In this document: positions 4,422 through 63,745 of the stretch, piece by piece
Numbering within the stretch: the first letter of the stretch is position 1
How the letters are laid out: every line of letters starts with the position of its first letter
NCBI GenBank assembly: GCA_013203315.1
Contig: JABMQJ010000020.1
Span: forward strand, 6,774 to 70,773
Source: Candidatus Omnitrophota bacterium
GTDB lineage: Bacteria > Omnitrophota > Gorgyraeia > JABMRN01 > RBG-13-46-9
Reading direction: 5' to 3'
DNA length: 64,000 nucleotides
Position numbers and translations under genes: made by a program
The notes under the pieces: generated by a model
The model's database searches: none
What the model saw: only the letters and a program-made list of their open reading frames with translations
What the model was told of the DNA's origin: nothing

Positions 4422-5144
4422 TTAAGCACCTCGCATAAGTTCAATATTGCCGATAGAGCCTACTTTGTCTTTATATATTACCATAGCTCCTATAATGCCT
4501 TCAACACTTTTTGCAAAATCTAAGGCTTCCTCTATTTCGCGCTCGGTTTTGACCTTATTGCAGCAAGCCGTGGCGCATGCATCCGCAAGGCTTGCCTCTT
4601 TCGCCATAACACATACGGCATCCGCGTTTCCGAAACTTAGTGAATGCCCGACCGTGCCGCTTGAAGTACAAATTCCTACGGGTGTCACCTCGGGGTTCAC
4701 CTTAATGGCTATCCTACCACTTAGAGGGGAATTACCTGCGTATATACCGATTTTCCTTTCTGTGTTAGTTTTTATAAATATGTCGCCCCCATTTTCAAGA
4801 ATGACCTGGCCTGTAAATTGGAGAAGCCCCTTTCCAACAAACTCAGCTATAGCGCCCGCAACTGCTGCCATGGGACCTACGCCCGCAAGGGTTGAGGCCT
4901 TTAACATGGCCCTTATTATGTCAGGGGCTTTATCATCGGCAGGCAGGGGAGTTAGGCTTTTCTCGAATTCAGGCTTTGTCTTTATATAGCTTATAATATC
5001 ATTCCTATACCGGCGGACAAGCTCCCGGGATTCGTTTTTAAGATCTTTTTCGGCGGATACAAAAATATCTGTTTGGCAGTCTCTTGTGGTAAAACCAACT
5101 AGGTCGGATTTTACCCATTCTCTATAAAATCGGGGCTGTTTCAT
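4422..5144 (-). CDS. UPF0280/COG2122 (ApbE-like superfamily) protein
   Basis: 240 aa. Gly/Ala-rich core ('LAGVGPMAAVAGAIAEF', 'GICTSSGTVGHSLSFGNADAVCV') typical of the UPF0280 family. It directly abuts the NIL-ferredoxin gene. Confidence 0.45.
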   Translation of the reverse strand: MKQPRFYREWVKSDLVGFTTRDCQTDIFVSAEKDLKNESRELVRRYRNDIISYIKTKPEFEKSLTPLPADDKAPDIIRAMLKASTLAGVGPMAAVAGAIAEFVGKGLLQFTGQVILENGGDIFIKTNTERKIGIYAGNSPLSGRIAIKVNPEVTPVGICTSSGTVGHSLSFGNADAVCVMAKEASLADACATACCNKVKTEREIEEALDFAKSVEGIIGAMVIYKDKVGSIGNIELMRGA

Positions 5145-5167
5145 GTTGTGATAGGGGGATTATTTTG

Positions 5168-5737
5168 TTAAAATATAAAAGCCGCTACAGCCAGAACAGT
5201 AGTATAGTCTCCGCCGGAACCGACAACCGCGGATTGGGTGATATTGGTGGTGCGGACTATCTTGTCGCTTATTTTGAATTCCTCTTTTTTTTCGGACCAC
5301 GGTTTGTCTTCGCCAAAGTCCATGCCCAGAGTCGAGGCAAGCATTGAAACGGCAAGTTCTTCCGCAAAATCGCCGGCTACTTTTTCCGTTTCACCGAAAG
5401 CGTGGTGTTCGCTAAGATATCCGTAGGCATTTGGATCGGCCGGTTTAGCGCATCCGATAGAGGATGCTATCAAGCGGTGCGGTTCGTTGCTCGAAGAACG
5501 CGCCATCACGACAAACGTGAGCATGCCCGCTACAAGTTCTTTTATGCCTTCGTTTTTTGATACTATTTTGCATTCGGGCGGTAAAATACTTGATACCGAA
5601 ACAAGGTTACACTTCTCTATACCGGCGTCTCGGAGGGACAGCTCAAAACTTCTAAGTTCCGTACTGTGCGTGCCAACGCCCTTGGTAAGAAACATTTTTT
5701 TAGGTACTAAAAGTCTTTTCCTCGAAGCCAGTATCAT
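5168..5737 (-). CDS. pdaD: pyruvoyl-dependent arginine decarboxylase
   Basis: About 175-189 aa. 'LRDAGIEKCNLVSVSSILPPECKIV' matches the PdaD self-cleavage region ('NAGIGNVNLIRISS|IMPPEAEIV') with the Ser-Ser pro-enzyme cleavage site. The start could instead be the internal Met at 5695. Confidence 0.75.
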   Translation of the reverse strand: MILASRKRLLVPKKMFLTKGVGTHSTELRSFELSLRDAGIEKCNLVSVSSILPPECKIVSKNEGIKELVAGMLTFVVMARSSSNEPHRLIASSIGCAKPADPNAYGYLSEHHAFGETEKVAGDFAEELAVSMLASTLGMDFGEDKPWSEKKEEFKISDKIVRTTNITQSAVVGSGGDYTTVLAVAAFIF

Positions 5738-5754
5738 TCGTCACATCCTTTTTA

Positions 5755-6642
5755 TTATTTCTTACTGTTAAATATATACCCCAAAAGCCTGTAGATAATT
5801 TTCGCGGCCAAAAAGTCAGGCGCGATAAACCCTTCTTTAGGAGATAATTCAACTACGTCAAATCCTATTATTTTTTTGTCCTTTGTAACTATTTTCAAGA
5901 AATCCATGAATTCATACCAGCCAAATCCGCCCGGTTCGGGTGTGCCTACAGAGGGCATGATAGCCGGATCAAGAACGTCAAGGTCAATCGTTATATATAC
6001 GTTGTCTTTTAAGGCGCCGGAGGCTTCCTTTTTCCAGTCGGGGCTGTCCAGGATATCGTAAACGCTTATAACCTTTACATCGGAAGGTGACGTATCCAGG
6101 AAATCCTTTTCTTCCTTGCTTAAGTTTCGTACGCCTACCTCAACTATAGGGCATATCTTCACGAGCCTTCTTGCAACGCAGGCATGGTTATATTTAGAAC
6201 CGTTGTATTCGTCTCTTAAGTCATAATGCGCGTCCAGATGCAGTACTGAAATTTCGTTAAACGCTTCTTTTGCGGCTTTAACAGCTCCTACCGTTATGGA
6301 ATGTTCGCCGCCCAAAAGCACCGGAAATTTACCCGCATCAAAAACCTCTTTGACAGCATCCTTTACGTTGGCTATAGCTTTTTCCGGTGTCGTCGGAGCA
6401 TTGAATTCCAAGGGTGGGGCTGTATAAATTCCTATTTTATAGGTTTCGGCTTGGAGTTCATCGTCAAAAAGCTCCATGTTGGTGGACGCCTCTATAATCG
6501 CTTCGGGCCCCTTTCGGGCACCTTTGATATACGTAAGCGTCTCGTCATATGGGGCTTGGATAATGCACACCTTTGATTTTTTCAGGCCCGCACACTCTTC
6601 GCTTATGTCCCCGAATCTTTTCTGTAAAATTATTTCTTCCAT
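5755..6642 (-). CDS. speB: agmatinase (arginase/ureohydrolase family)
   Basis: Mn-binding ureohydrolase motifs 'LGGEHSITVG', 'HLDAHYDLRDEY', 'ITIDLDVLDPA'. Paired with pdaD, giving an arginine to agmatine to putrescine route. Confidence 0.7.
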   Translation of the reverse strand: MEEIILQKRFGDISEECAGLKKSKVCIIQAPYDETLTYIKGARKGPEAIIEASTNMELFDDELQAETYKIGIYTAPPLEFNAPTTPEKAIANVKDAVKEVFDAGKFPVLLGGEHSITVGAVKAAKEAFNEISVLHLDAHYDLRDEYNGSKYNHACVARRLVKICPIVEVGVRNLSKEEKDFLDTSPSDVKVISVYDILDSPDWKKEASGALKDNVYITIDLDVLDPAIMPSVGTPEPGGFGWYEFMDFLKIVTKDKKIIGFDVVELSPKEGFIAPDFLAAKIIYRLLGYIFNSKK

Positions 6643-7761: not shown

Positions 7762-8655
7762 ATGAAAAAAACTCTTTTAATTTTCCTATTTCTTGCTATT
7801 GCTTTATACTCTTTTCCACAAAACGCATTCGGAGGAGCGTGGACCCTTCCTCAATACAAAGTCTGGGGCGAATATTCCTTTAAGTGGCAATGGGCAAAAG
7901 AAGATTTTGGTGACGACTACAAAAAAAAGAAAAAAGGTCAAGACGCCCGTTCCTGGGATTTCATAATGGAGCCCAAGGTTGAAATAGGCATAACGGACTC
8001 ATTCAATCTTTTGTGTTCAATGGAATATAAAGAAAGTAAATATAAAGAGTATGGCCGTCCGGATGACTGGGGGCCGTATAGAAGAAAAAATAACGGCGTA
8101 AGTTACGTAAAGGTCGGGGGCAAATTACGGTTCATTGAAGAGCCATGCGTAATAAGCGGTCAAATAAAAGGCTATTTTTATACCGGTTACGGCAACGATC
8201 ACGGTGATGATCCTGCATATAAAAACCAGCCTGCCATAGGAGACGGCGATGACGCGCTGGAATTACGTGGCTTGATCGGAAAGAGATTTAAGCTTAATAC
8301 GCCCCTTGAAGACTGGACATTGCCATGCTATGCCGGTCTGGAGGCAGGATACAGGTGGCGAAATGCAGCCGTAGCTAATGATATACCTATATTCGTTGAA
8401 ACCGGCTTTTGGCCGTTTAAATGGCTTCTTATAAAAACAGAGCTTGATACAATCATAGCCCACCGTGACACGGGTAGCATAGATAAAGACTATGCAGTAT
8501 GGCGCATAGGCCCCGTATTCCAGATTGCCGGGGATAGCGCCTTAAGAGAGGGTAAGCGAATACTGAATATCGAGCTTCAATACGGCCTAACCGTATGGGG
8601 AAGAGAGACTTCCGCCTATCAGGAACTTACCCTAAAAATACAGGGTGCGTTTTAG
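7762..8655 (+). CDS. hypothetical outer-membrane beta-barrel protein
   Basis: Signal peptide. Rich in aromatic/Gly alternation and ends in '...LKIQGAF' (C-terminal Phe, an OMP signature). No recognisable family. Confidence 0.4.
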   Translation: MKKTLLIFLFLAIALYSFPQNAFGGAWTLPQYKVWGEYSFKWQWAKEDFGDDYKKKKKGQDARSWDFIMEPKVEIGITDSFNLLCSMEYKESKYKEYGRPDDWGPYRRKNNGVSYVKVGGKLRFIEEPCVISGQIKGYFYTGYGNDHGDDPAYKNQPAIGDGDDALELRGLIGKRFKLNTPLEDWTLPCYAGLEAGYRWRNAAVANDIPIFVETGFWPFKWLLIKTELDTIIAHRDTGSIDKDYAVWRIGPVFQIAGDSALREGKRILNIELQYGLTVWGRETSAYQELTLKIQGAF

Positions 8656-9328: not shown

Positions 9329-9610
9329 ATGAGAAGTGGCAAAAGGATTCTATTAGCGCTCGTTGTCCTTTGGGCCGCGGTTTTCCTGGTTCAAGATGTG
9401 GCGTTTTGCCGTTCAACCAGTCTTACAACAACGCTCTATATAACGGTGAAGGCGCCTCCAAAAGGTAATATAGCGCCCAGCGATAAGAATCTTGAGGCGG
9501 TGGAGAAAATAGCGAAAGATCAGGCAATGACAGCGCCTAACATAAAAGATGTTGCGCCTGAAATTAAGTTTTCTGGAGGTAAGATATACACCATAACAGA
9601 CACGCTTTAA
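9329..9610 (+). CDS. small secreted protein (signal peptide), c-di-GMP riboswitch-controlled
   Basis: 93 aa. Strong RBS. N-terminal signal peptide 'MRSGKRILLALVVLWAAVFLV'. Its stop abuts the convergent 1497-aa gene. Confidence 0.55.
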   Translation: MRSGKRILLALVVLWAAVFLVQDVAFCRSTSLTTTLYITVKAPPKGNIAPSDKNLEAVEKIAKDQAMTAPNIKDVAPEIKFSGGKIYTITDTL

Positions 9611-12600
9611 TTAGAAGTACTTGATCTTTATGGTTTTTTTCTCGAGGATAAAGTCTTCGTCTTCCAGCTTATCTTTAGGCTCTACCGTTATGGGCCTACT
9701 GGCGCTGGGAGAGGCTAATCGATACTGCTTAGGCAGGCGTTTGGTATCTATGTTAAGCTCGTATTCGCCGGGGTATACGTATTCAAAAATAAAACTTCCG
9801 TCAGAAAAAGAATACGTGTCCCTGTATTCCGGGGTAAGGAATATCCGCGCATTCGGAACCGGAATATCAAGGTCTTCCTCAAAAATACCGTTATCGTTAA
9901 CGTCGACGTATATCTTGCCTTCTATTGTTCCCGCCGCAACAACGATAAAAGTTGTTTCCGAAGTTTTAAGCTGTTCCACCAAGACATCCTTTGTCGCATC
10001 GCCTCTTATCATCATGTCAACAGGAAGGCCCCTCATGTCTAACCTTACTTTTCTCGAGCCGGGTACTACTTTTTTGATAAATGCCTTACCACCGGCGTTT
10101 GTCTGGGCGCTTCTTCCTTCAACAACGTAAGCAAGGACATCTTTCATGCCTTTGTCGTCCTTATCCATTTTTTTGTTTCCGTTTGCGTCCTCAAAAACAT
10201 ATACCTTTATCCTGCCCCATTTCTCAGGGGTTGTAATATCAAAAACATGCCTGACAAGAAATAGAACGGACCAATCCTGTGTCGACCTGTAGGTATCGTA
10301 TAAGTCCATGTTATCGGCTTCGTAGGTTAGGCTAAGGGTCGTGACCGGCGAAGGGTTATAATCAATGCCCGTGGAAAACGAGAATATAGAGCTGTTAGCT
10401 ACGGTATCCTGGAAGGCGGTCCGCAACCTGCAGTCTCCGGAGAAGCTAAGATAGGGCAGCAAATAATACCTGCCTGAGAGGGTCGTGTTCCATACCGATG
10501 AGGTCGGCAGGCCGTTCATTGAGAGTTGTTTTGTTTTTGTCAAATCCTGATAAAGCCTTATATAAGAACCGTTTAATTCCGGGAAATATTTATACAGGGT
10601 AGCGGATGCCATGTGATAAAAATTACTGCCGGTACTTCCGCCGAGCGGGTCGGCTCTGTAATATTGATATCCCAACTGCAAGGAGGCTGTTCCCATGGTT
10701 TTGTAATAATCGAAGGAGTAGGTTTTGTAATAGCTTCCGGAAGCGTCCTCGTTGCCTCCGTCCGTAAGGTTGCGACCGTAGTTCCAACCGAAAGAAATAT
10801 TCTGATCATAGGGGAGCCTGTAGTTGAACCCCGTGTACGCGCTCCTTGTATACGAGGTAGTCTCGTCTTTGTTGAAAGCGACGTTATCCCTGCTTACGGT
10901 TCCCGACATATTGAGGCTAAAGTCTTTACTTATTTTAAAGCTTGAACCTATGTCCCAGCCCATGTAGTCCTGATATGTCGTGGGAATACCGATAGACGCG
11001 TATTTATCCCCGATAAACTCGAAAGAAGTGTTCATGTTAAAACGATCGTGCTTGTATTTTATTCCTGTTTTATAATCGAGATCGCTTACAAGTTTATCGC
11101 GCTCGTTATCGGGAAAATAGTTTGATTGGGCATAAGTGTTGTAGAAATTAAAATTCGGAAATACCTGCCAGTCGCTATCCAGTAAATAAACAAAATTCTT
11201 TCTCGGATGAGCGGTGGCGCCTGAGTCCTCTGAAAATTCGGCTTTGTTATATACATACAGTTCCGTCGCGGAAAATTTGAACGTGTCTGTGTCGACCCAA
11301 TCCTGTTTGGAAGCGTAGAGTTCCCCGAAATACTTCACGGTACCGCTACCTTCAGACCTGGGGATAGATATAGCGTCCATCTCACCTGCCCAGAAAGTGG
11401 CCTTTACGGGGGCGTCCTTCTCGGCGTAGTCCATTTCAACGCCCCAATACGGCTGCGACTGCGCTCTTACACTGGGAAGTCTCATGTAATTATCAAGTAG
11501 CTTCAGCGTGTTGTTGTTCTTGGAAAAGGATAAGTGCTGGGCATCTTCTTTCCATGTGTGCTTATCCGATGTATCATAGTCCCTCATGCTCAAATGGCCA
11601 AAAACATCCAAATCGTGTATCCTGCCATTCAGGTAATATTCGTTATACCTCGTGCGCTTTTCTTCAAACATGTCCTCAAAATACCTGAAACTTGCGTCTA
11701 GCTTTAAGTCTATGTCGGGTTGATATTCTGCCGGCAAAAGTTCTTCTCTCACTTCGCGGGGTAATTTGGGGACATCTATTTCTGCTGCCTCTTTCTTCTC
11801 TATTTCCTCAAGCGACATCGGGGGCTTTTCAATCGTGAACATGGTGAGCTCCGGCTTTTCGCCTCTTGTAAATTTCACAAGATTTTCTTCGGGGAAATAC
11901 TTGTATGAAATGCCGGTTGCATCCTTAACTGAGCCCAGGCTTAACAAAAAATTGTCATTATAAATAGCTAAAGGCTTGCGCATGGTAAGAAACGGCTGCT
12001 TGCTTACAAGGCCTTCGGTTTTGCCTACATTCATTTCGAGGGGGATACCGTCATATCTTATGATAATAACAGTCAGGGCTGCGGGCTTCATAAATGTGAG
12101 CCCTATCTGATCGGTAAGCTCTTTAAGAGGGGTCCAAATCTCGTTTCCCTTGCGCAGGCATGGGCTTTCAAACTCAAATTTTTTACCCGCGAATTCAAAG
12201 GCTATATTTCGGTCTATTTCGTAACCGGAGAAATCATATCCGGTCGGCCTCATCCTTCTTGCCTCCACCCATTCGCCTTCCGGGATTCTTTCCACTTCCT
12301 CAACCGTGACTTCAGGGGTTTCCAGGAAAGCGGGTTCCTCTTCGGTAATAAGCGTTCCTCCAGGAATTTCTTCTTCACGCAAGAGAGCAAGTGGTTCTGT
12401 TTCTTCCGGGGTAACCTCCTCGACGGTAACTTCCGCTATAACTTCCTCTATGGTAAGTCCCTTGACGGCATCTTCTTCGACGGCAACTTCCCTTACGGGC
12501 TCTGAGACACGCTCCCTGCGAGTTTTCTTCCCGGCAAACTTTTTTCTTAAAGCGTTTATAAAATTTTTGAAACCGTTCAGCATACCGGCGCGCCTTCCGG

Positions 12601-14104
12601 AGCCGACAAGGGAGGCTTCTGTGGCTGCCTGCTTTCCGGCTTCCCTGGATAACGCAACGAAATTACCCACCGTTTCAGTATTTTGTTTAAGCCCATCGCC
12701 TACTTGTTTGGCGTATTCATTTATGCGCTGGCTTGGGGATGCTGCCGGTGCAATTTCAGCTTCCTCGGTAACGCTTACAATTTCCTTGGGGGCATCGCCT
12801 GTTATGCTTTCTCTTTCGGCGGTTACAAGGGGTGTAGTACTTGCATAATTTCTTAAACGCGTTGCTGTGCTGTCTAGATTTGCCTTCAAGTCGGTGCGCC
12901 TTTCAGAATTAATGAAATATACCTCTTCGGTTACTTTCCTTCCGACCCCCCTTGATGTCGTAATGAATCTTCCGATATTAATGATTCCGTTTTTTATATA
13001 TTTTCCGAAATTCGGTAGCTCTCTTTGGGGCAGGATTCTTTCTCTTTGAGGAGCCATCTCTTGGGGGGCTATTCTTCTTTCCTGGGTTAATCTTTCAGGA
13101 ACCCTAAGCGGCTTAGAGATTTTCTCTAATATTGCGGGTTTTTTTACTTCTGCGGCTCGCTTCGGCATGATACTCGCTACCAGTGATGTTGTCGCAGCAG
13201 GTTTTCTTTTTGCGGGTTTTGCAATAACCGGTTTTTCGACAATCGGCGTTTCCCGGGTAACTTCTTCGATTTCAGGTTCTCTCGTAACTGTGATTTCAGC
13301 TGCTTCTTCAAGTTCTTTTATTTTCTCTTTGCAGCTCCTGACAGCTATTTGTGTCATGTTTTTTGTAATCGATATACGCCTCTTTTTTTCCGGGAAATCT
13401 TCCTCGAGGTTATTTAGTATTTTTAAAACGGTTTTATAATTTTTAAGCGCTACCAGGAATCTCTGGTTCTCTGCGTCAACGGAGGCTTTTTCTAAAAGAC
13501 GGGTTATTTTCTCTATTTCCCTGGAAAACGTTCTGTCTTCCGCCGCCTTGCCGCTAAGGGCGTCTATTTCGTCTCTTAAAACACTTTCCTTGCTTTCTAT
13601 GAGGCGTAGGAGAAGTTTGGCCTCTCTATTGTCGGAAGCGCCTTTTAAAACGAATTCTATCTCGGTTCTGGCGTGGCTATACTTCTTAAGCGCGACGTAA
13701 TAACGGCCTTCGTTTTTCTGGTCTTCCGCGGTGTCGATTAGATTATATGCGTTTTCCAGTTTTTCTTTATATGTATATTTGCTGTTAATATCTTGTTCAA
13801 TATGGCGTATCTGGGTCTTACATTCTTCGATTTTATTTTCCGTGAGATCTTTTAAAAGTGATATACGCTTATTTTGCGGTTCGCTATCCAGGATGTTTCG
13901 GGCAATTGCCAGCGCTTCTTCGTACTTTTGCAGGGCAAACATGAATCTCTGGTCTTCATAAAAACAAGCGCCTTCTTCGACAAGGCTTAAAACGTCGTTT
14001 TCGTTTCCGCTGATTTTGGCATAGGAGTACCCCCAGGAGCCAAAAGTTATAAAAAGGCTCATGATCAAAGTCAACGAAATTAACGAAATCTGCCTTTTTC
14101 TCAT
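9611..14104 (-). CDS. giant (1497 aa) TPR / acidic-linker / outer-membrane beta-barrel / C-terminal beta-sandwich protein, candidate atypical usher of the adjacent pilus-like locus
   Basis: Signal peptide. N-terminal TPR-like helical repeats, a Glu/Pro/Val-rich acidic region, a roughly 600-aa Tyr/Asn/Gly/Asp-rich beta region typical of OM barrels, two CarboxypepD_reg/Cna-B-like beta-sandwich modules, and a C-terminal '...KIKYF'. It occupies the usher position downstream of the chaperone gene. Confidence 0.5.
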   Translation of the reverse strand: MRKRQISLISLTLIMSLFITFGSWGYSYAKISGNENDVLSLVEEGACFYEDQRFMFALQKYEEALAIARNILDSEPQNKRISLLKDLTENKIEECKTQIRHIEQDINSKYTYKEKLENAYNLIDTAEDQKNEGRYYVALKKYSHARTEIEFVLKGASDNREAKLLLRLIESKESVLRDEIDALSGKAAEDRTFSREIEKITRLLEKASVDAENQRFLVALKNYKTVLKILNNLEEDFPEKKRRISITKNMTQIAVRSCKEKIKELEEAAEITVTREPEIEEVTRETPIVEKPVIAKPAKRKPAATTSLVASIMPKRAAEVKKPAILEKISKPLRVPERLTQERRIAPQEMAPQRERILPQRELPNFGKYIKNGIINIGRFITTSRGVGRKVTEEVYFINSERRTDLKANLDSTATRLRNYASTTPLVTAERESITGDAPKEIVSVTEEAEIAPAASPSQRINEYAKQVGDGLKQNTETVGNFVALSREAGKQAATEASLVGSGRRAGMLNGFKNFINALRKKFAGKKTRRERVSEPVREVAVEEDAVKGLTIEEVIAEVTVEEVTPEETEPLALLREEEIPGGTLITEEEPAFLETPEVTVEEVERIPEGEWVEARRMRPTGYDFSGYEIDRNIAFEFAGKKFEFESPCLRKGNEIWTPLKELTDQIGLTFMKPAALTVIIIRYDGIPLEMNVGKTEGLVSKQPFLTMRKPLAIYNDNFLLSLGSVKDATGISYKYFPEENLVKFTRGEKPELTMFTIEKPPMSLEEIEKKEAAEIDVPKLPREVREELLPAEYQPDIDLKLDASFRYFEDMFEEKRTRYNEYYLNGRIHDLDVFGHLSMRDYDTSDKHTWKEDAQHLSFSKNNNTLKLLDNYMRLPSVRAQSQPYWGVEMDYAEKDAPVKATFWAGEMDAISIPRSEGSGTVKYFGELYASKQDWVDTDTFKFSATELYVYNKAEFSEDSGATAHPRKNFVYLLDSDWQVFPNFNFYNTYAQSNYFPDNERDKLVSDLDYKTGIKYKHDRFNMNTSFEFIGDKYASIGIPTTYQDYMGWDIGSSFKISKDFSLNMSGTVSRDNVAFNKDETTSYTRSAYTGFNYRLPYDQNISFGWNYGRNLTDGGNEDASGSYYKTYSFDYYKTMGTASLQLGYQYYRADPLGGSTGSNFYHMASATLYKYFPELNGSYIRLYQDLTKTKQLSMNGLPTSSVWNTTLSGRYYLLPYLSFSGDCRLRTAFQDTVANSSIFSFSTGIDYNPSPVTTLSLTYEADNMDLYDTYRSTQDWSVLFLVRHVFDITTPEKWGRIKVYVFEDANGNKKMDKDDKGMKDVLAYVVEGRSAQTNAGGKAFIKKVVPGSRKVRLDMRGLPVDMMIRGDATKDVLVEQLKTSETTFIVVAAGTIEGKIYVDVNDNGIFEEDLDIPVPNARIFLTPEYRDTYSFSDGSFIFEYVYPGEYELNIDTKRLPKQYRLASPSASRPITVEPKDKLEDEDFILEKKTIKIKYF

Positions 14105-14194
14105 CTTAATTTTTTTCCGATATTAAAAGGAGATCTTCTTGCCACCAAGCGTCTCCTTCCTTGCTGCCCTCACGCAGGCTTTGCTGTGGTTTCC

Positions 14195-15019
14195 TTACTT
14201 TACGTTAAAACTTATTTGCCCCCCTAGGTAATCTTCTCCTCCGTAATCGAGAACTGCCTGAACAAAATACTCTCCCGGCGCAAGCTTCTTTTTGTCATAC
14301 CTAACTGTAAACTCCCTATTCGTCCGGGGGAATATGCCGCCGTCCTGCGAATTAAGTAGGAGTTCGGCTACTTCGGTTTTCGAAGAATCTATTATTTTAA
14401 CCGGGCCGCTTGGTCTTACAAGAATATTGCTGTTATTTCTTACCGTGCAGCTTATGTCAAAAGCGCCGTCTTCATCGGGTTTGCTCACCTTTAAACCCTG
14501 GAGCTCTACATCATAGCTTTCAGCGCCTTTAACCGTTACCAAAAAGATTGATCCGAGCCTTATATTTATTGATGCCCCGGTCGTGGCGCTTAACTCATCT
14601 GCAGGCGGTGATATTTCAAAAAACACAACGCCGTATCTGCCGCCCTTGGCATCTTCCGGAACTTCTACGACATAGCGCACCTTCATCTGGTCCGAAGGTC
14701 CCAGATCAAATTCTGTGGGGCCTATTTTAAGCCAGTCAGCGGCGGTCCAGGGCGTAGTTCCTTCCGGCAGAAAATCATTGCTTCCATCCGGCGCGTAAAC
14801 AAGGTCGTTTACATAGACCTTTACATGTATCGTCTCGTTCTGATCGTAGTTGAGAACGGTTACATACCCGCTCTCAGTACCGCCGGGACTAATGGATAGC
14901 TTTACCCTCGGCGGATCTATGTTCATTTTTATCGCATAAGCGGAAAAATTCATTAAAAATAGAAAAATAACTATAGTGCATGCAAATATCGGTTTTTTTA
15001 TAAACTTAGCAAAACTCAT
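14195..15019 (-). CDS. PapD-like periplasmic pilus chaperone (two Ig-like domains)
   Basis: 274 aa with signal peptide. N-terminal 'IDPPRVKLSISPGG...VTVLNYDQNETIHVKVYV' and 'GGRYGVVFFEISPP' resemble the PapD/CsuC N-domain pattern (conserved Arg in strand A, hydrophobic run then E-I-P-P). Confidence 0.45.
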   Translation of the reverse strand: MSFAKFIKKPIFACTIVIFLFLMNFSAYAIKMNIDPPRVKLSISPGGTESGYVTVLNYDQNETIHVKVYVNDLVYAPDGSNDFLPEGTTPWTAADWLKIGPTEFDLGPSDQMKVRYVVEVPEDAKGGRYGVVFFEISPPADELSATTGASINIRLGSIFLVTVKGAESYDVELQGLKVSKPDEDGAFDISCTVRNNSNILVRPSGPVKIIDSSKTEVAELLLNSQDGGIFPRTNREFTVRYDKKKLAPGEYFVQAVLDYGGEDYLGGQISFNVK

Positions 15020-15519
15020 AATACCTCCACCATAATGAACCTGATATGTGACGTATAAGAACCTGCTGCTTGGTATTTTGGAATTTGTAAGTTATATTTG
15101 AGTTTTATCTGAACCGTTGTGCCCGTATTATCACTGCCTGAGCTTGTATATATCAATACCGGTCTCGTCGCGAAATCGCCGGGACTGCCAACGCTGTTTG
15201 AAACAAGTCCTCCGCCGTTTACCACCTGCTCTACTATCCACTGCATGTTCTCCGCCGGTATGGAATGCTGAGCGCTTGTAAACGGGCGCATCATCTGTAC
15301 CTTAAAATACCACGTTCTTTCGTTATCGGAGGTAAAATCGAACCTGTGTTCGTAATTACCTTTTCTTGTAATCGATTTTTTTTCGTTCATTTGCATGGTT
15401 CCGAAATCAATCGTTTGAAAGCCTTCACCTAACGACATTTCAAAGGTCGCAAAAGATCTTGCCTCCATTAGGACTAGAAGCATAAAAACTAAAATAATGA
15501 AAATCGGCTTTTTAATCAT
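15016..15519 (-). CDS. SCPU/Csu-pilin-like secreted subunit (paralog 1)
   Basis: 167 aa with signal peptide. C-terminal strand 'AGSYTSHIRFIMVEVL' fits the 'G-Y-T-x-T-V-T-V-T' motif shared by the paralogs. Confidence 0.45.
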   Translation of the reverse strand: MIKKPIFIILVFMLLVLMEARSFATFEMSLGEGFQTIDFGTMQMNEKKSITRKGNYEHRFDFTSDNERTWYFKVQMMRPFTSAQHSIPAENMQWIVEQVVNGGGLVSNSVGSPGDFATRPVLIYTSSGSDNTGTTVQIKLKYNLQIPKYQAAGSYTSHIRFIMVEVL

Positions 15520-15523
15520 CGCT

Positions 15524-16075
15524 TTACTCTGTCTCCGTAATAAGATATGCTACTTTCAGGCCGTAATGGCCTCCCATCGCCGAACCCGGCAAATCAAGCT
15601 TGTATTGGAATCGCAATATGAGCTCTTTCCCTATCTCATCTTCTGTGTCGCTTGTATATACAACCTGCGGTTCATCTGAAAATTCCTGCCAACCGGGCGC
15701 TGCTATCCCGCGGCCATCTGTATGGTATATGCGCCATTTAAAGCTTTCTGGCGGTATCTGATTCCCTTTTGGGCCTATAACTTCATTAAGAATATGTATT
15801 TTTACGTAATATTTTCTTCCCTTGTTGGCAGCACACTTTATTGTATTGTAATATGTGCCTTCTTTTAATGTTACACTATCTCCGGGGTTAACAACGCCAA
15901 AATTAATATAATTATTATCAATATTTATATCGAAAACGGGAAGGACTACAACTGAGGCAAATATATCTTCTATGTCCTCATCTGCATTGCAAATACAAGG
16001 CACCAGGACAGCAAAAACCACCACCAATGATGCAAAAACCCCTATTATATTACACTTAGCTCTATATATAGTCAT
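15524..16075 (-). CDS. SCPU/Csu-pilin-like secreted subunit (paralog 2)
   Basis: 183 aa. N-terminal hydrophobic segment. C-terminal 'GGHYGLKVAYLITETE'. Confidence 0.45.
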   Translation of the reverse strand: MTIYRAKCNIIGVFASLVVVFAVLVPCICNADEDIEDIFASVVVLPVFDINIDNNYINFGVVNPGDSVTLKEGTYYNTIKCAANKGRKYYVKIHILNEVIGPKGNQIPPESFKWRIYHTDGRGIAAPGWQEFSDEPQVVYTSDTEDEIGKELILRFQYKLDLPGSAMGGHYGLKVAYLITETE

Positions 16076-16184
16076 TTTAGTAGTATAAGTATACCATAAA
16101 TATGTTTAAAAAGCAAATGTCCTTAGTGTTTTGGCTAAGGCCAAACTAAAGATGCGTAACTTCAAAGTTTTCAATGAGTTACGC

Positions 16185-16778
16185 TTAAGGTGCCGTTGTC
16201 ATCGTATATGTTACCGACACCGTATATGTCCGTTCGGCACTAAGCCCTCTTGGGTCAACGCCAAAGCTAAAAGTTGAGAGCGTTCCGAATGGCGTATTGA
16301 CCGTATCCAGAGACCCGGAGGTATAGATATTTGACGATTCCGTAGGTATCGGCGTCCATTCTACGCTGCCGGCTAGGGTTCCGTCTGTTTGCTGGTTTGC
16401 GTTCCTATCCCACGGTTGTGTATAATAGTACTTTGCGTTACCGGCAAACAAGCCTTCTGAATATACCCCCTGCATTTTTAAATACCATGGCACGCCCATA
16501 TTACTGATACACACTACCCCTGTATCGCTCTTTCCGTCATCCTCTTTTCTTCCGTTAGGATATACCAAAGATTTTGTGGGGTCAACATTGCTGAACGGCA
16601 CGGCTGTAGAGTATATCACGCTCGCGTCAGTATAAAATTCCATTGAAAATATACTTGTCGCGGTAACGGTGACGTTTGTCGTAAGAGAGCTGTCTAGAGC
16701 TATTGCGTTGCTCTGCGCTATCAGAAAAACGGCCACCAGGGCTAAGATCTTTATATCTATCATTTTATACAAAGACAC
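16185..16778 (-). CDS. SCPU/Csu-pilin-like secreted subunit (paralog 3)
   Basis: 197 aa with signal peptide. GTG start preceded by GGAGG. C-terminal 'ERTYTVSVTYTMTTAP'. Confidence 0.5.
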   Translation of the reverse strand: MSLYKMIDIKILALVAVFLIAQSNAIALDSSLTTNVTVTATSIFSMEFYTDASVIYSTAVPFSNVDPTKSLVYPNGRKEDDGKSDTGVVCISNMGVPWYLKMQGVYSEGLFAGNAKYYYTQPWDRNANQQTDGTLAGSVEWTPIPTESSNIYTSGSLDTVNTPFGTLSTFSFGVDPRGLSAERTYTVSVTYTMTTAP

Positions 16779-16890
16779 TTTTTTGCCTCCGTTATTAACT
16801 TCCTAAAAAAAATTACTTCTTCGACGGGTTTTAAGTCCTCGCAGTTTAAGTAATGACCGATGCATCTCCAGACCACCCAAAGGTCTGCGC

Positions 16891-16920
16891 GATCGGTGTG
16901 TCTTTTAAGACACACCGATC
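16891..16920 (-). terminator. intercistronic perfect 13-14-bp stem-loop after putative major subunit gene (partial terminator / mRNA stabiliser)
   Basis: Perfect palindrome 'gatcggtgtgtctt tt aagacacaccgatc' 38 nt downstream of the stop of the 16958-17536 gene. A second 6-bp hairpin lies next to it (16868-16888). No clean U-tract. Confidence 0.4.
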
Positions 16921-16957
16921 ATTATCTTATCTGCATTACGTTTTCCGAGAAGCAATA

Positions 16958-17536
16958 TTATGCTGTTTCGGTTAACGTATAGGTAATCGTACCAGTATAG
17001 GGACCGGGTGCCAATCCTGAGCCATCAACCTTGAAGCTCAAAGTTGCCAGTGTTCCCTCCGGTGTATTGGTTTCGTCTGCGGTTCCAGCTGTGTATAAAG
17101 TTACAGCAGCGCCCGTGAGATCGAACCAGGTTAGATCACCATATGTTCGGCCACCATCTGCAGGTGTACCCCAGTTTCGGTTCGTAGGTTGGCCCATGTT
17201 ACCGGCCAATTTTGTAAGAAGCGGTGATGCAGCGTTCATTGCGATTTTCAAATACCAAGGATTTCCCTGGTTTGATTTTATCGTAAGACCTACATCTGAT
17301 TTACCGTCATCTTGTGCTCTTCCGTCTGCATAGTTGTATGCACTTGACGGGTCTACAGTGGAAAACGGAATGGCTGTCGAATACAGTACATTCGCGTCCG
17401 TGTAAAACGCCATCGAGAATATGCTACCAACTGATGCAGTAACGTTTGAATTGAGTGTCTGGTCAGCTGCATAAGAAGCACCTGCTATCGCGATTGCGAA
17501 TAGCATTACCATAGATGTAATCACTAGTTTTTTCAT
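16958..17536 (-). CDS. SCPU/Csu-pilin-like secreted subunit (paralog 4; putative major subunit)
   Basis: Start moved to the Met at 17536 (RBS AAAGGAGG 6 nt upstream), giving 'MKKLVITSMVMLFAIAIAGASYA' as signal peptide. C-terminal 'GPYTGTITYTLTETA'. Own upstream region of about 270 nt, and the strong hairpin downstream. Confidence 0.5.
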   Translation of the reverse strand: MKKLVITSMVMLFAIAIAGASYAADQTLNSNVTASVGSIFSMAFYTDANVLYSTAIPFSTVDPSSAYNYADGRAQDDGKSDVGLTIKSNQGNPWYLKIAMNAASPLLTKLAGNMGQPTNRNWGTPADGGRTYGDLTWFDLTGAAVTLYTAGTADETNTPEGTLATLSFKVDGSGLAPGPYTGTITYTLTETA

Positions 17537-17656
17537 TTTGTTCACCTCCTTTGTTTTGTTTTTAAATTGTTTTAGTAACCCTTTATTTAGCATTTCTGTT
17601 TTTCCCATCATGTCTTTAGTATATCATATTTAGTTTTTCCTGTGGTCACGGCTGAG

Positions 17657-17681
17657 TAACATCAATGTAACATCAATGTAA
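17657..17681. repeat. tandem 11-mer 'taacatcaatg' x2 (+taa) in the upstream region of the putative major subunit gene
   Basis: Exact tandem duplication 120-145 nt upstream of the 17536 start codon. Candidate regulator binding site. Confidence 0.4.
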
Positions 17682-17808
17682 TAAGGCCAGTGAGTCTGAA
17701 GCAGGGCTCCATTATATATAATGCGATAATTGTGCTAAAATTTCATTAAATACTATAATATAGCAAAAAGCGAGAAAGAGCGGAAAATCTAACTTTTTAT
17801 ACCTAACA

Positions 17809-18411
17809 TCACGCTGAAAGCGTCATCGTAAACTGAATTTGACACGCATAATTATTGTTAGCGTCTAGCTGGCTTGGGTTAATCGCAAAACTGAAACCGC
17901 AGAGGGTGCCCTGCTGCCATGTTTCAGCGCCCATATTATTTAAATCGTTGGCTCCTGCTGTAAAAATTCTCGCAGGTGATGTGGGAAGGGGCTGCCATCC
18001 TTCTATCAGTGCTCCGTTTGAAGACTGGCCATACCTCATGTTCCATGGTCGCCAAAAACCGTACTTTACCTGCTCTAGGAAAAAACCGCCCGGGCTTCCC
18101 TGAATCTTTAAATACCAGGTTTCACCAAGGTTGCTTTTGCATAATAGGCCTATGTCGTTGTTCCCGTCACCCTGAGAACGATTATCAGCCTGGACCCATG
18201 TTTTTGTAGGATCCATATTTGTAAAGGAAACCTGCGTGGTATATAGATATTTACTAGGTTCGCCCGTATAGAACTCCATCATAAAAATATTGCTAACATC
18301 AAAGCTACCTGCAGCTATTACGGTTCTTGTTTCAGCAAAAGAAGATTGGCCTACAAAGCTTGCGGCCGTTACAGTCAGTAAAAGAGTGGTTATTAAAAAT
18401 ATTTTTTTCAT
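17809..18411 (-). CDS. SCPU/Csu-pilin-like secreted subunit (paralog 5)
   Basis: Start moved to the Met at 18411 (RBS AAGGGGGG). Signal peptide 'MKKIFLITTLLLTVTAASFVGQSSFA'. C-terminal 'NNYACQIQFTMTLSA'. Confidence 0.45.
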   Translation of the reverse strand: MKKIFLITTLLLTVTAASFVGQSSFAETRTVIAAGSFDVSNIFMMEFYTGEPSKYLYTTQVSFTNMDPTKTWVQADNRSQGDGNNDIGLLCKSNLGETWYLKIQGSPGGFFLEQVKYGFWRPWNMRYGQSSNGALIEGWQPLPTSPARIFTAGANDLNNMGAETWQQGTLCGFSFAINPSQLDANNNYACQIQFTMTLSA

Positions 18412-18525
18412 ATTAGCCCCCCTTAGTATCGTTTTATATTCTAACAAAAAAAATGTGCAAAGTAAACAAAAAAAGCTGACTTTTTCATATCTAACTTATT
18501 TTTAATAACCCTTAGCCCTTTATCA

Positions 18526-52362: not shown

Positions 52363-55300
52363 TTACAGCGAGCTCATGGTTTGGGATTCGCATCTGCGGA
52401 AGTCGCTCATAGCAGTGTCTGCGTCTTCGAGTTCGATGTCCGGTAGCACGAGTACGAAGGAGCCATTAAGTAGTTCGCTGAGTTTTTCGATGTCGGCCAG
52501 TTGCAATTCGGCTTTTAAGGAGTCGTAGTTTTTCCTGGTCAGTCGGTTAATGGATTCGATTATCGCGTTTACGGTAGCGCTTATGCTTCCCTCATCTCCG
52601 TTTCCTTGTTTTTTGAAGTCTATGAGTTTCGCCATTAAGAGTCCGATCTGCATCTGTGGCACAGCAGGCACATATTCGCCCTGTAGGGCGGCTATGTGCG
52701 CACCAAGTTCGCGTAATGACGCTAATCTGGCCTGGTATTCACTGGCATCTTTTCGTCTGTCGTCTTTTAATATCCACGTAAATACTGTTTCCTGCGGGTT
52801 TGCGGCTTTTATGCCTTCGATATCGGTTACAACCTTATCCATCCTTGCCATGTTCTCATCCGAAGTTGTCCCGTCGTCAACGTAAACAAGGAACTTTATC
52901 GGGCCGGATTCGTTCTCTATGTTCATCCACTTGGCCATGCGATTTCCGGAAGTCTTGAGTCTATTCGCGAAGCTATTGCACTCGCTTAAAACCGAAAACT
53001 TATCCGATTCCGACTTCACAGCCACGACTACAGTACATGGCGGTATCATGCCAACTGCCTCTACAGCTTTTTGGCCTTGCTTAATAGTTTCCTCGAGATG
53101 CTCACGGTCCATAGGTGGGGTAACCATTTTGGGTGCGAAACCATAATCTCCGGTGTCTACGCGAGGCGATTCTTCGACAGGTGCTTGTTTCACCGCGAAT
53201 TCGGGTGGACCAGGAGTAGTAGCTTTTTTCCTTTGATATTTATAAAATGTACACGCTTCAATATACTTACTAAGAGTTATTGGGACTGTTTTTGAATCAA
53301 TTATTTCTAAACCCTGAAGCGGAATTGCATTATCTGACCCTTGTCTTAAAATAACTAATTTTGCATCCTCTCTAAGCCCACGCTCAGGATGACTCATTAT
53401 GGCGTTTAGCTGGTCAAGGAATTCCTGTTTATTTTGGTCTGGCTCCGGATAATATAAATATACGATATCATATTCTGAGAAATCTACGTTAGCATTGAAT
53501 ATATCTTTGTGTTCAAAATGCACTCTATTTACGACTTCGGTTAAATTTGAGGCAACTTCCGGATCTAGAGTTCCGTCAAAGTTACGCGCGATCATGTTTA
53601 AAAACCACTGCCTAACGCTATTACTTACTAAGAACAAAGATTCTTCTACTTCCATGCCATCTACAGAAGCGCCGTACGAGGCCATCTTATACGCTGTTGA
53701 CCCATCGCCTGAGCCAAATTCAAAGACTTTTGTGCCATTTTTGATTTCGGCAAATTCTGCTAATTCATCAAATATCTCATTAAAAGTAATTTGAAATTTT
53801 CCATACTTAACATTTGTCAATTCGTCGATAGTTACATTATTGGTCCCGGGAATTTCCTGTGCCCATCCTAATTTTAAATATAATTCTATATAAAGGTCAT
53901 ATATGCATCTTTTTACTCTTTTTTGTACGGTTTCAGACTGATCAACCATGGGCGTTTTCTGTACATAATCTCCTCGCTTCAATGCTTCGCTGGTTAATGC
54001 ACCATATCTGTCCTCAAATGCTTGCTTCAGGTCATCGGAAATAGCGCGATTTGACATTAATAATCTTCCGAATTTTTTCAGCTTGTGCATATCACCCCTA
54101 GCTGGCTGGCTCGGATCAGCCATATCCGTCGGGCTCATCCAGAGGGCATCTACGATTGTTACAATGATGTGAGGGTAAGGATTGCCTATCACATGTTGTA
54201 CTAAGTTTTCCGCACTTGTAGCCGCATCCTGTGCATGTTCGGTAAGATCGCTTCTTCCGCCACCTTGAGGTGGGAGTGTCGGTTCCGCCGATTCCCGAAC
54301 CGCGGGTTGAGATGGTTCCGGTGCACTGGCTTCTCTATCAGGAAGCCCTACTTCTCCCTCTTCCTTCTTTTCCCATGTTAAAGTTATCCTGGTACCTTTT
54401 TCAACTACAGGATCAGGGGCATCAACGCGCTCTAATCTCAAAGTCGATTCTATCTCTTCGACTATCTCAAGTGAATATTCACCAAACCTTAAACATTTTC
54501 CTCTTTTGACCCATCTTTCGCCTCTTGTCTCAATGGTGACATTATCAGGGAATATAACAATGATTCGCAACCCATAACCCTCATCAGGCCTTTGAATTGT
54601 TCCATCATCCAGCCAGGCGCGATGTGTCTTATCGGTGTTTATGCTTTCTTGCAATAAGGCATCGGGATTTTCCATGCCGGGCCCTTCATCAATGCCTATA
54701 ACTTCAAGTTTTTTCGAACCCCCTGCATCTTCGGTATAGCGTACTTCGATATTGCCGCCCCCGCCATGCATTATAATATTAAATACCATTTCACCACAGG
54801 CATCTGTTATGTCCTTATTGTAAATACCGAGATTTATTGTATTTAAAAATTCATCCAATGCGTCTACAAAAGCTGTGCCCTGCAGTATCGCTCTTTCTCT
54901 ATCCGCTTCCTCGGTAAAGTGCCACGTAAATGCGGGTCCGCCTGCATCTAGTGGAGTAGGTTCGGGTTTTTTCGCCATCGAAAGTATGCCGGCACTGCGA
55001 AGCTGTGTTAGTAATGCCTCTGCTCTTGCTGTATTAGATTCACCGAGGTGCACGCTAATGGCCTGAATAGCTTCATCTCTTTCAATTCCACCATCTGCCC
55101 TATCCAACATCACAGCTGCTACTATATTACGCAATACCGGATCCTCCGGATAATTCTGCATGAATGTATCTAAAAGATCTCTTCTATCAGCGGGAAGTTG
55201 TGCGTAATAATCTTGTGCCGCCGCCAATTCCCGAGGCGCGGCTTCGTCTGGCTTTATTTCGCCCGGGCTATATTCAGTGGTGCCTTCCACTGTAAAGAAA

Positions 55301-63600: not shown

Positions 63601-63745
63601 CAATAATACTGATCTCGCCGAAAGATATGTTGGGATGGAGTTCAACTGGGAGCCTGGTGAGTGATATGAGCCCTATCAGGATAAGGGCGATAAAACACAT
63701 TGCCGTCGCAACGGGCCTTTTTATGGCAAGTTCGGGTAAGTTCAT
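60605..63745 (-). CDS. RND efflux transporter permease (AcrB/HAE1 family)
   Basis: 1046 aa, 12 TM with two large periplasmic loops. N-terminal 'MNLPELAIKRPVATAMCFIALILIG' and conserved TM4/TM10 regions. Confidence 0.75.
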   Translation of the reverse strand: MNLPELAIKRPVATAMCFIALILIGLISLTRLPVELHPNISFGEISIIVQIRGGIPPTEVESMVTKPIEEAVSTVSHLEEMLSISKEGEATIVLSFEPGINMDFVALDVREKFARVKNKLPESAEKPVIAQFKRSDVPILILAVTSLRRTTEGIRKIVDEVVKERVKRISGVANVEVGGGRERKILVEVDQRALAKYSLPIQRIISMLGTNNLNLLSGEIKQEKNKYLIRTIGEFESIEDIKKIGVSTTPDGSIVRLGDVAEVRDSHLEPKGYARINIRPVVSLYIQKESTGNTIQIVEGLMKEVERIREIMPDDIKIIVTSNQADFIKKSIDNLKNSLLKGAVLIMFILAFFLGRIKKKYSIFIAIAIIGVMFMPIKALYVMLLVSVVIFLIRQELRPIMIVAASIPISIIITFGLMELYKLSINFITMSGLALGVGMLVDNSIVVFEHILTKIEQGKKQVQAAIDGAYEMFLVIWASTLTTIIVFFPILFAGKEMGLLYRGVAWTVIFSLGISFFVALTIVPLLSSRIKITKSTTDLLGPLYNLQKKALIFILKKRFIVFAIVIAAFIACLFLATRMGKEFIGTTEQNKFTIFVELPTGTKLDISNETVKKVENLLKDIPEIKLFNARVEPWSSKVYVELLPLDQRKKAITEIIDDLRPKVAKIKPAFIYFEEEQEVGTKEIILDLFGYDYDILRELAISIATKLGSIPRFTDTKIRMREGRPELGLKVDKNKAAQYDMSVSDISTIVHAQMRGLRATLFHTESKEVEMIGRLEERYRKTFKDVHKLVMVTEDGKKVFLDQIADFEYGLGPSEIWRKDRSRMIQVSTNIGEIPLSKAAEKIKEALEDMKFPENYFYRLGGNYPSMVKTQKEFGLIIWVILALIFIVLASLFESYYQPLIIMGTVLLASIGAILALYVTKTAIGMGALIGMMMLAGIVVNNGIILVDHINFLRKKNKSLFHVVIQAAHDRLRPVVMTTATTVMGLLPMALDKSEGANLWNPLAITVIGGLLVATPLTLLLVPAIYTTFERIKEVVPTLLVKLSKR

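Follow-up and report, generated by a model that had tools for sequence, protein, structure and literature searches.

Gene organization of the locus

We analysed a stretch of 64,000 nucleotides (nt), hereafter the window, from contig JABMQJ010000020.1 of a Candidatus Omnitrophota bacterium (assembly GCA_013203315.1), and focused on a locus at positions 9611-18447 that, as we propose with moderate confidence, encodes a highly divergent chaperone-usher-like secretion and assembly system. An open reading frame (ORF) check revealed seven co-directional ORFs on the minus strand, encoding five small proteins, a protein of 274 amino acids (aa) and a protein of 1497 aa (Table 1). The original prediction, made from the letters alone, had described five minus-strand genes for signal-peptide proteins of 167-217 aa followed by the 274-aa and the 1497-aa genes, and all of these ORFs were found where it had placed them. 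Each of the seven proteins starts with a signal-peptide-like hydrophobic N-terminus. Moreover, the genes are tightly packed, with an overlap of 4 nt between the stop of the 167-aa gene and the start of the 274-aa gene.

For paralog 1 the probable ATG start at position 18411 would give a product of 200 aa; this protein matches the hidden Markov model (HMM) of the small-protein family with an E-value of 1e-67, carries the motif GETWYLKI and has the C-terminal sequence NYACQIQFTMTLSA. Two proteins, among them paralog 2, show 100% identity to proteins of an NCBI Candidatus Omnitrophica metagenome-assembled genome (MAG). A strong hairpin is located 3' of the paralog 2 gene; we infer that paralog 2 is a candidate major subunit. 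In paralog 4 the sequence KYYVKI takes the place of W-Y-L-K.

A hairpin at the locus had likewise been predicted, and a perfect 13-bp stem was indeed found after the 217-aa gene. Since the coding (minus) strand contains no T tract at this site, the hairpin is not a canonical intrinsic terminator, and it could possibly serve as an mRNA stabiliser or attenuator. A promoter-like site near paralog 1 (18466-18438) represents a consensus match only. As the frequency of such sites does not exceed that in shuffled sequence (22 sites compared with 17 ± 4 expected), we do not claim a promoter.

Table 1. Features of the locus, in the order of the minus strand, followed by the regions of the large protein
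Feature	Position in the window	Strand	Remarks
Subunit paralog 1	17809..18447	-	212-aa ORF from TTG; first gene of the unit; secreted
Subunit paralog 2	16958..17611	-	217-aa ORF; probable start 17536, giving 192 aa
Perfect hairpin, 13-bp stem	16891..16920	-	GATCGGTGTGTCTT-AAAA-GACACACCGATC; 38 nt 3' of the paralog 2 stop
Subunit paralog 3	16185..16778	-	197 aa; HMM E 1.5e-77; C-terminus RTYTVSVTYTMTTAP
Subunit paralog 4	15524..16075	-	183 aa, divergent; HMM E 3e-42
Subunit paralog 5	15016..15519	-	167 aa, shortest; adjoins the chaperone gene
Chaperone-like protein	14195..15019	-	274 aa, predicted periplasmic; signal peptide; two Ig-like domains
Large outer-membrane protein, candidate atypical usher	9611..14104	-	1497 aa
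TPR/MIT-like helical repeats, ~residues 35-280	13265..14002	-	Pfam Fis1_TPR_C, TPR_12, MIT
Glu/Pro/Lys-rich low-complexity linker, ~residues 281-628	12221..13264	-	Sequence; no Pfam match; poorly conserved in alignment A2
Cu_amine_oxidN1-type 'stalk' alpha/beta domain, ~residues 629-747	11864..12220	-	PF07833, E 4e-6
Beta-barrel region, ~residues 799-1267	10304..11710	-	~24 long antiparallel strands; ends LFLVRHVF
Two C-terminal beta-sandwich domains	9638..10300	-	Usher CTD1/CTD2 position

The 274-aa protein combines a PapD-like fold with WxLIP sequence

The AlphaFold2 (AF2) model of the 274-aa protein, obtained with a predicted local distance difference test score (pLDDT) of 91.4, consists of two Ig-like beta-sandwich domains, and two of its long strands (127-136 and 153-163) are joined by a flexible loop of ~16 residues. 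When this model was compared with the PDB using Foldseek, the first rank was taken by the WxLIP of Enterococcus faecium (9i1y/9i25; E 7e-12), followed by CfaA (E 8e-11) and then by Caf1M, SafB, FimC, DraB, FaeE, CsuC and EcpB, so that every class of chaperone-usher chaperone is represented. Chaperones of chaperone-usher systems account for more than 40 of the top 50 matches, all with a probability of 1.00 and E-values between 8e-11 and 2e-7.

A search of the PDB with the family profile likewise retrieved 'EfmWxLIP1' (chains 9i1y, 9i25) over nearly the full length (E 1.6e-6). The profile of the N-terminal domain only retrieved EcpB (E 0.005) and EfmWxLIP1 (E 0.013), both alignments extending from strand F1 across the loop to strand G1. 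Two arginine residues are highly conserved in the family, namely Arg154 (45/47 members), which opens the strand after the ~16-residue loop and aligns with an Arg in both EcpB and EfmWxLIP1, and Arg38 (40/47), which is located in the first strand; the two may correspond to the basic cleft residues Arg8 and Lys112 of PapD.

The kinship with WxLIP is also evident from profile-profile alignment. As a reference we used seven proteins from Firmicutes plasmids annotated as 'DUF916 and DUF3324'. With the mature sequences only, hhalign gave a probability of 96.8% (P 2.8e-10) over 232 columns, compared with 0.1% for the reversed control. The Pfam models of the WxLIP domains match below threshold, WxLIP_HBD in 16/47 and WxLIP_PGBD in 5/47 members, the window protein being matched by WxLIP_HBD only. 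The PapD_N (PF00345) and PapD_C (PF02753) models match neither the window protein nor any of the 47 family members, and two homologs carry the JGI label 'PapD chaperone'. A comparison of P0074 with the PDB and the gene contexts of P0074 and P0075 revealed no annotated WxL neighbours. The last element of the 274-aa protein is a beta-strand that reaches residue 274; the C-terminal membrane helix of WxLIP is absent, and the protein is for this reason predicted to be soluble.

Thus, judged by its model the 274-aa protein has a PapD-like fold, and by profile comparison it is a member of the WxLIP (DUF916+DUF3324) family. The proposal of a PapD-like two-domain chaperone is therefore borne out for the fold (AF2, Foldseek) and not for the family, which is WxLIP, an affiliation that the original prediction had not considered, and not the one described by the PapD_N/PapD_C HMMs.

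The 1497-aa protein is predicted to have an usher-like architecture

The original prediction had assigned to the 1497-aa protein TPR repeats, a Glu/Pro linker, a copper-amine-oxidase-N-like module, a beta-rich region, two further domains and a KIKYF end. Pfam and sequence agree with this composition: TPR, Glu/Pro linker, Cu_amine_oxidN1, a beta-rich region, SdrD_B and CarboxypepD_reg, with KIKYF at the end. The stalk domain (Pfam match at residues 639-742) is present in 11/12 homologs, is modelled with a pLDDT of ~80-88 and directly precedes the barrel. At the C-terminus Pfam detects an SdrD_B-like domain (~residues 1269-1390; 12/12 homologs) and a CarboxypepD_reg-like domain (~1392-1489; 11/12), which persist in the versions from Marinamargulisbacteria and UBP8. 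The N-terminal module is lineage-specific. The proteins of loci L015 (Omnitrophota) and L016 (Marinamargulisbacteria) harbor T2SS-T3SS_pil_N instead of TPR, in L015 as two such secretin-type N-domains, and the barrel and the SdrD_B-like domains persist.

The AF2 model covers residues 600-1497 and was built from 12 sequences only. It is of moderate quality (mean pLDDT 63, predicted template modelling score 0.40), the pLDDT being 80-90 in the second half of the barrel, 45-65 in the first half, below 50 in the first C-terminal domain and ~80 in the last one. DSSP assigns 24 long antiparallel strands to the modelled barrel (fragment residues 200-668). In a Foldseek comparison the best matches of the barrel are ushers, which are ahead of LptD and MtrB by 3-4 orders of magnitude in E-value; the outer-membrane tether SlpA is matched as well. 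The model thus points to an usher-like architecture, comprising a periplasmic domain, a 24-strand barrel and two beta-sandwich domains, without detectable usher kinship in sequence.

Directly next to the end of the large gene lies a convergent ORF on the plus strand (9329-9610), the 93-aa product of which has a signal peptide but no Pfam match. The ORF is kept at the same position in loci L001, L002, L003 and L005 with 47-87% identity, and its product could play an accessory role or be a partner that occupies the barrel lumen.

The gene order is conserved in three phyla

For the synteny survey, one genome per GTDB species was searched with the chaperone-family profile, which yielded 27 loci, and the ORFs of these loci were searched with HMMs built from our own alignments. 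In 18 loci from three phyla, two to six subunit paralogs are followed on a single strand by the chaperone-like gene and the gene for the large protein. They comprise every Omnitrophota contig long enough to show the order (L001-L012, L014, L015), three loci of Marinamargulisbacteria (L016, L017, L019) and one of UBP8 (L021). As the same gene order recurs in 18 independent loci of three phyla, the arrangement is far beyond chance. A co-occurrence check had been proposed for the gene triplet, and the result is in line with the co-conservation that was anticipated.

A different arrangement was observed in monoderm Actinomycetota (L020, L022, L024-L027). Here, the chaperone-like protein comprises 419-485 aa and carries a C-terminal membrane segment, one subunit-like gene (E 1e-13 to 1e-23) is located just upstream, and a gene for the barrel protein is absent from these loci. 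After the membrane-anchored chaperone-like gene comes one for a secreted protein of very large size (840 to 1521 aa), without a match to any locus-family profile (L022 11947-16509; L024 11142-15116; L026 6911-9430). These proteins may correspond to the 'large WxL' adhesin of the Firmicutes clusters.

Three further loci deserve mention. In the Omnitrophota genome HKST-UBA08 (L018), a gene upstream of the chaperone-like gene (4571-5950) encodes a 460-aa protein with three tandem subunit domains, matched by the A5 HMM at residues 52-158, 231-307 and 318-457, which looks like a fused, 'pre-polymerised' subunit array. In L015, a marine-biofilm Omnitrophota MAG, the chaperone-like gene (9886-11589) and the gene for the large protein (11589-14573) follow each other; this chaperone-like protein comprises 568 aa, with the second Ig-like domain in three extra copies. 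Finally, the plasmid NZ_CP140100.1 of Deinococcus sp. AB2017081 (L028; 12397-17031) encodes a 272-aa relative of the chaperone with 27% identity. In these cultured strains the gene for the 272-aa relative is followed by those for a 181-aa protein and a 1090-aa 'carboxypeptidase-like regulatory domain' protein. The layout is similar, but the neighbour proteins match none of the locus-family profiles, and the Deinococcus plasmid loci were therefore not counted as members. Nevertheless, the Deinococcus relative could be experimentally tractable.

The small proteins form a rare family with WxL-like motifs

At the sequence level the five small proteins are true paralogs: they share 22-47% identity with the 217-aa protein and match the family HMM with E-values from 1e-39 to 1e-89. 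All five are single-domain proteins, and a lipobox Cys is absent, i.e. they are not lipoproteins. Two blocks characterize the family. The first, in the middle of the protein, reads C-(K/R)-S-N-x-G-x-x-W-Y-L-K-h, with the W present in 102/113 family members and L, V, I or F at position +2 from it; the second, at the C-terminus, reads Y-x-x-T-h-T-(Y/F)-T-(M/L)-T-x-T-(P/E/L). The subunit domain is always located at the extreme C-terminus, including in the few distant members of 290-350 aa. A full HMMER scan of 1.84 billion representative proteins returned only 186 relatives, and by this measure the subunits are a rare orphan family. Pfam and NCBIfam scans of all seven proteins of the locus returned no SCPU, PapD, Usher or WxL family, and among the 113 subunit-family members weak Pfam matches were limited to DUF4402 in 4 (best E 1.3e-4) and the Ig-like NPCBM_assoc in 18.

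Signal peptides proved to be a source of error in the profile comparisons of this family. Full-length hhalign alignments of the subunits seemed to bridge two families, with 95% for WxL and 91% for SCPU, and were rejected as largely artefactual because their Viterbi paths begin in the signal peptides. The signal peptides inflated probabilities of 1-34% to 91-95%, even though the realigned region that is displayed excluded them, and the inflation escaped both the reversed and the shuffled controls, which were clean. Likewise, the matches of the subunit profiles A4 and A5 to BtuB (E 0.5) and to Fab light chains in the PDB stem from the bacterial signal peptide and were discarded.

With the mature sequences only, the comparison with WxL yielded 34% (P 4e-4), confined to 26 C-terminal columns, and that with eight genuine SCPU pilins 1.1% (P 0.05), which is insignificant. 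The C-terminal 45 residues alone gave 92% (P 6e-7) when aligned with WxL. In a global-score test the subunits matched the Ig-like N-domain of their own chaperone about as well as WxL, and thus the G-x-Y-x-x-x-h-x-h hairpin may be generic for Ig-like domains. Block-shuffle z-scores were too lenient to be used as evidence for homology, since an unrelated Ig-like domain reached a z of 7.7.

The original prediction had regarded the C-terminal strand as the hallmark of SCPU/Csu-type pilins. This assignment does not hold: SCPU and fimbrial models match 0/113 members, DUF4402 matches 4/113 weakly and the mature-only comparison with SCPU remains at 1.1%. The strand resembles the second WxL motif at least equally well, as well as a generic Ig-like F-G hairpin. 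Genuine small WxL proteins contain 'GW.L.V' and 'Y..TLTW.L..TP' at the corresponding positions, the second subunit motif (Y/F-T-L/M) having Tyr or Phe where WxL has Trp. Hence, the motifs, the partner protein and the gene order suggest that the subunits are WxL-like.

Paralog 5 lacks a segment of ~15 residues that follows the signal peptide in the other paralogs, as judged by an alignment gap. In 10/13 Omnitrophota loci the gene adjoining the chaperone gene encodes the shortest subunit, and the N-terminal region of this subunit often fails to match the family profile. In chaperone-usher systems, a subunit without a donor strand is the tip unit. By analogy, paralog 5 may be the tip or first subunit, which would be consistent with donor-strand exchange.

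Neighbouring genes

Immediately upstream of the locus lies a long, co-directional polysaccharide biosynthesis cluster (18526-51288, minus strand), with genes for Bac_transf, a WecG glycosyltransferase, a Wzz/GNVR tyrosine-kinase-like protein, GH116 and GH113 with an F5/8 type C domain. None of the 28 related loci has these polysaccharide genes next to the unit. On the other side, an ORF on the plus strand (7762-8655) encodes a secreted Tyr/Trp/Gly-rich protein of 297 aa without a Pfam match, which is found near the locus in L002 and L007 as well (58-60% identity) and is possibly a small outer-membrane protein. Farther away, a minus-strand ORF of 2689 aa (52363-60432) without a Pfam match at E <= 0.001 adjoins an AcrB-family transporter gene (60605-63745).

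A chaperone-usher-like assembly system as the favoured interpretation

Our interpretation, to which we lean with moderate confidence, is that the locus encodes a highly divergent chaperone-usher-like system. The five small paralogs would be exported to the periplasm by Sec and captured there by the 274-aa protein, a soluble PapD-like relative of WxLIP. The hairpin formed by its F1 strand, loop and G1 strand, anchored by Arg154 and Arg38, would probably be inserted into the incomplete beta-sandwich of a subunit. The chaperone-subunit complexes would then be delivered to the 1497-aa outer-membrane protein acting as usher, whose barrel of ~24 strands would be flanked on the periplasmic side by the stalk and the two C-terminal beta-sandwich domains. 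Threaded to the surface, the subunits could form a thin multi-subunit fibre or a surface array. The shortest paralog, which lacks the N-terminal segment and is encoded next to the chaperone gene, would maybe be the first (tip) unit, and the TPR region together with the long linker could provide a lineage-specific periplasmic scaffold.

The genes, the paralogy of the subunits, the synteny over three phyla, the fold and the WxLIP membership of the chaperone and a barrel with ushers as its best matches are what this interpretation builds on, and from them we infer that donor strands complement the subunits and are exchanged between them, that the subunits pass through the barrel and polymerise, and which role each subunit has. 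The synteny, the chaperone fold, a gene order equal to that of csuA/B-A-B-C-D and a subunit type that is fixed by its position in the operon argue for it.

Several results weigh against a chaperone-usher-like system. HMM and profile searches did not detect membership of the subunits in any pilin family, SCPU (PF05229), Fimbrial and WxL models matching 0/113 members, and a gene for a two-domain adhesin is absent from the locus. The Usher (PF00577), PapC_N and PapC_C models match neither the window protein nor its 12 homologs, usher chains are absent from the results of a PDB profile search with the large protein, and hhalign of this protein with four archaic ushers gave 0.4% (P 0.13). A plug domain is not visible in the modelled barrel, which has no insertion of at least 80 aa at any point; strands 6 and 7, between which ushers carry the plug, are separated by only ~28 residues with two short strands of low confidence. 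The mature chaperone is weakly similar to four archaic (CsuC-type) chaperones (17.8%, P 0.0014). Finally, we know of no genuine WxL protein, the partner of the closest relatives of the chaperone, that polymerises.

In another reading the locus encodes a diderm WxL/WxLIP surface complex devoid of a pilus. The WxL-like small proteins would bind the WxLIP-like protein stoichiometrically without polymerising and would decorate the peptidoglycan or the outer membrane, and the large protein would be an anchor between outer membrane and peptidoglycan, by means of its TPR, linker and stalk, and not a translocon. We consider this rather unlikely, though several of our data speak for it. The chaperone-like protein robustly belongs to the WxLIP family, the subunits contain a W-x-L block (W in 102/113) and a C-terminal Y..T(I/L)T(Y/W)xL..TP strand like the second WxL motif, and their C-terminal 45 residues align with WxL (92%, P 6e-7). 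The subunit domain is always C-terminal, as in WxL proteins (PMC9772566). The order from small WxL to WxLIP is likewise found in clusters on Firmicutes plasmids, the monoderm relatives in Actinomycetota are membrane-anchored, with a subunit gene upstream and no barrel, and Foldseek matches the large protein to the outer-membrane tether SlpA. However, the WxL model of Pfam matches 0/113 members, the mature-only match is restricted to 26 columns (34%, P 4e-4) with a comparable score for an unrelated Ig-like domain, the second motif contains Y or F and not W, and the locus encodes neither a large WxL protein nor an LPXTG protein. Moreover, the soluble WxLIP relative is always encoded before a 24-strand barrel whose C-terminal domains are usher-like, which is hard to explain without transport.

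The barrel itself could be understood in other ways. It may permanently house a partner, for example a small paralog or the 93-aa protein, and thereby present it on the cell surface, as in LptD-LptE or MtrB-MtrA, or act as a Slam-like translocon for single surface proteins, in either case without a fibre. A lumen of ~24 strands without a plug must be filled by something, LptD and MtrB are among the next-best structural matches and the small secreted ORF at 9329-9610 is kept downstream in four loci. TPR plus barrel is the layout of Slam, too. We nonetheless regard this possibility as improbable, as the Foldseek E-values of ushers are better than those of LptD and MtrB by 3-4 orders of magnitude, the combination of a PapD-like chaperone with several positionally typed subunit paralogs typically occurs in fibre assembly, and the small proteins are not lipoproteins. 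Least probable by far is that the large protein has no functional tie to the small ones and exports an exopolysaccharide for the neighbouring cluster in the manner of BcsC, PgaA or PelB. The TPR region at its N-terminus, the barrel towards its C-terminus and the adjacent Wzz/GNVR, Bac_transf and WecG genes (18526-51288) would fit, but polysaccharide genes adjoin the unit in 0/28 related loci, the gene for the large protein always comes right after the chaperone-like gene in different phyla, the TPR module is dispensable, as L015 and L016 have another module in its place, and the barrel has ~24 and not 16 strands. Clusters of the Wzc type, furthermore, use exporters of the Wza type. On the basis of synteny and strand number we rejected this reading of the TPR-barrel protein.

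Evolutionary implications

Chaperone-usher pili are major adhesins and biofilm organelles, and we know of no established origin of the pathway. WxL/WxLIP clusters, which are associated with virulence, are widespread in enterococci, listeriae and lactobacilli, and their mechanism is still speculative. Omnitrophota, in turn, is a phylum of uncultured, often host-attached nanobacteria.

A chaperone-usher-like system in Omnitrophota is not a new principle, since archaic chaperone-usher systems have previously been described from many phyla (PMC9452303). What is new is that all three components, by sequence criteria, are outside the current HMM families of chaperone-usher systems and that the chaperone is a member of the WxLIP family; in addition, the usher-like protein appears from its model to have a new domain architecture without a plug. 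We found no publication that ties WxL/WxLIP to chaperone-usher systems or describes chaperone-usher systems in these phyla, and no papers on DUF4402 or on PDB entry 9i25.

The WxLIP sequence, the PapD-like fold and the coupling to an usher-like barrel suggest that WxL and chaperone-usher systems share a principle of subunit completion. In line with this notion, the distribution of the unit, with an anchored chaperone and no barrel in monoderms and a soluble chaperone plus barrel in diderms, suggests a shared subunit-completion mechanism and possibly a shared origin. We therefore tentatively put forward, as an idea that we ourselves hold to be somewhat doubtful, that the system of Omnitrophota, Margulisbacteria and UBP8 might be an evolutionary intermediate between the WxL/WxLIP clusters of Gram-positive bacteria and the chaperone-usher pathway of Gram-negative bacteria. 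On the same tentative footing, WxLIP might be a PapD-like chaperone anchored in the membrane, which inserts a strand into WxL-type subunits and thereby completes them. Diderms, in an equally speculative step, might have freed the chaperone into the periplasm and recruited a 24-strand barrel of independently evolved domain architecture.

If true, this would define an unrecognised class of chaperone-usher-like systems and at the same time offer a mechanistic explanation for WxL clusters. The locus connects WxL clusters with chaperone-usher pili in a concrete and testable way and defines three protein families that current HMM libraries leave 'hypothetical'. It also adds to what is known of the envelope machinery of Omnitrophota, bacteria whose attachment could depend centrally on surface fibres.

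Comparison with known systems

With the TPR-porins BcsC, PgaA and PelB, the large protein shares an N-terminal TPR region and an outer-membrane barrel in one polypeptide as well as a polysaccharide cluster nearby. However, its barrel has ~24 strands versus 16, extra domains follow the barrel, and it is syntenic with a chaperone and subunits and not with synthase genes. EcpB of the E. coli common pilus (alternate family) is the only chaperone of a chaperone-usher system that was found by sequence (E 0.005-0.01), and the match runs from strand F1 through the loop to strand G1 and includes the Arg that precedes G1. In contrast, the similarity is limited to ~65 residues, and no other component of this pilus is similar.

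The WxL/WxLIP (DUF916-DUF3324, CscA) clusters of Enterococcus, Listeria and Lactobacillaceae resemble the locus in that the 274-aa protein is a WxLIP homolog over both domains, in sequence and structure, and in that small secreted partners are encoded just upstream, which contain the W-x-L block and a C-terminal (Y/W)-x-L strand in a domain at the extreme C-terminus. The type of interaction described for these clusters also corresponds to donor-strand complementation by a chaperone. The locus differs from these clusters in its diderm host, in a chaperone without the C-terminal membrane helix, in the absence of a large WxL adhesin and of an LPXTG protein and in the constant presence of an outer-membrane barrel. 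In addition, the WxL model of Pfam misses its subunits, the second motif of which contains Tyr or Phe and not Trp.

Compared with archaic chaperone-usher systems, the proteins of the locus lack matches to the SCPU, PapD_N/C and Usher HMMs, and mature-only profile comparisons yielded P values that are insignificant for subunits (0.05) and ushers (0.13) and weak for chaperones (0.0014). The subunits lack the conserved cysteines of SCPU, a plug domain and a tip-adhesin gene after the usher are absent, and the N-terminal part of the large protein, in place of PapC_N, consists of 750 additional aa with the TPR region, the linker and the stalk. The likeness to the Csu system of Acinetobacter baumannii (csuA/B-A-B-C-D-E) lies in the order of the genes, from subunit paralogs to the chaperone and the outer-membrane usher, and in a two-domain PapD-like chaperone, with CsuC among the Foldseek matches (E 2e-8). 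Furthermore, the subunits end, as do Csu pilins, in a G-x-Y-x-x-T-h-T-h-T-h strand, and the large protein, like archaic ushers, is predicted to combine ~24 strands with two beta-sandwich domains, ushers being its best structural matches.

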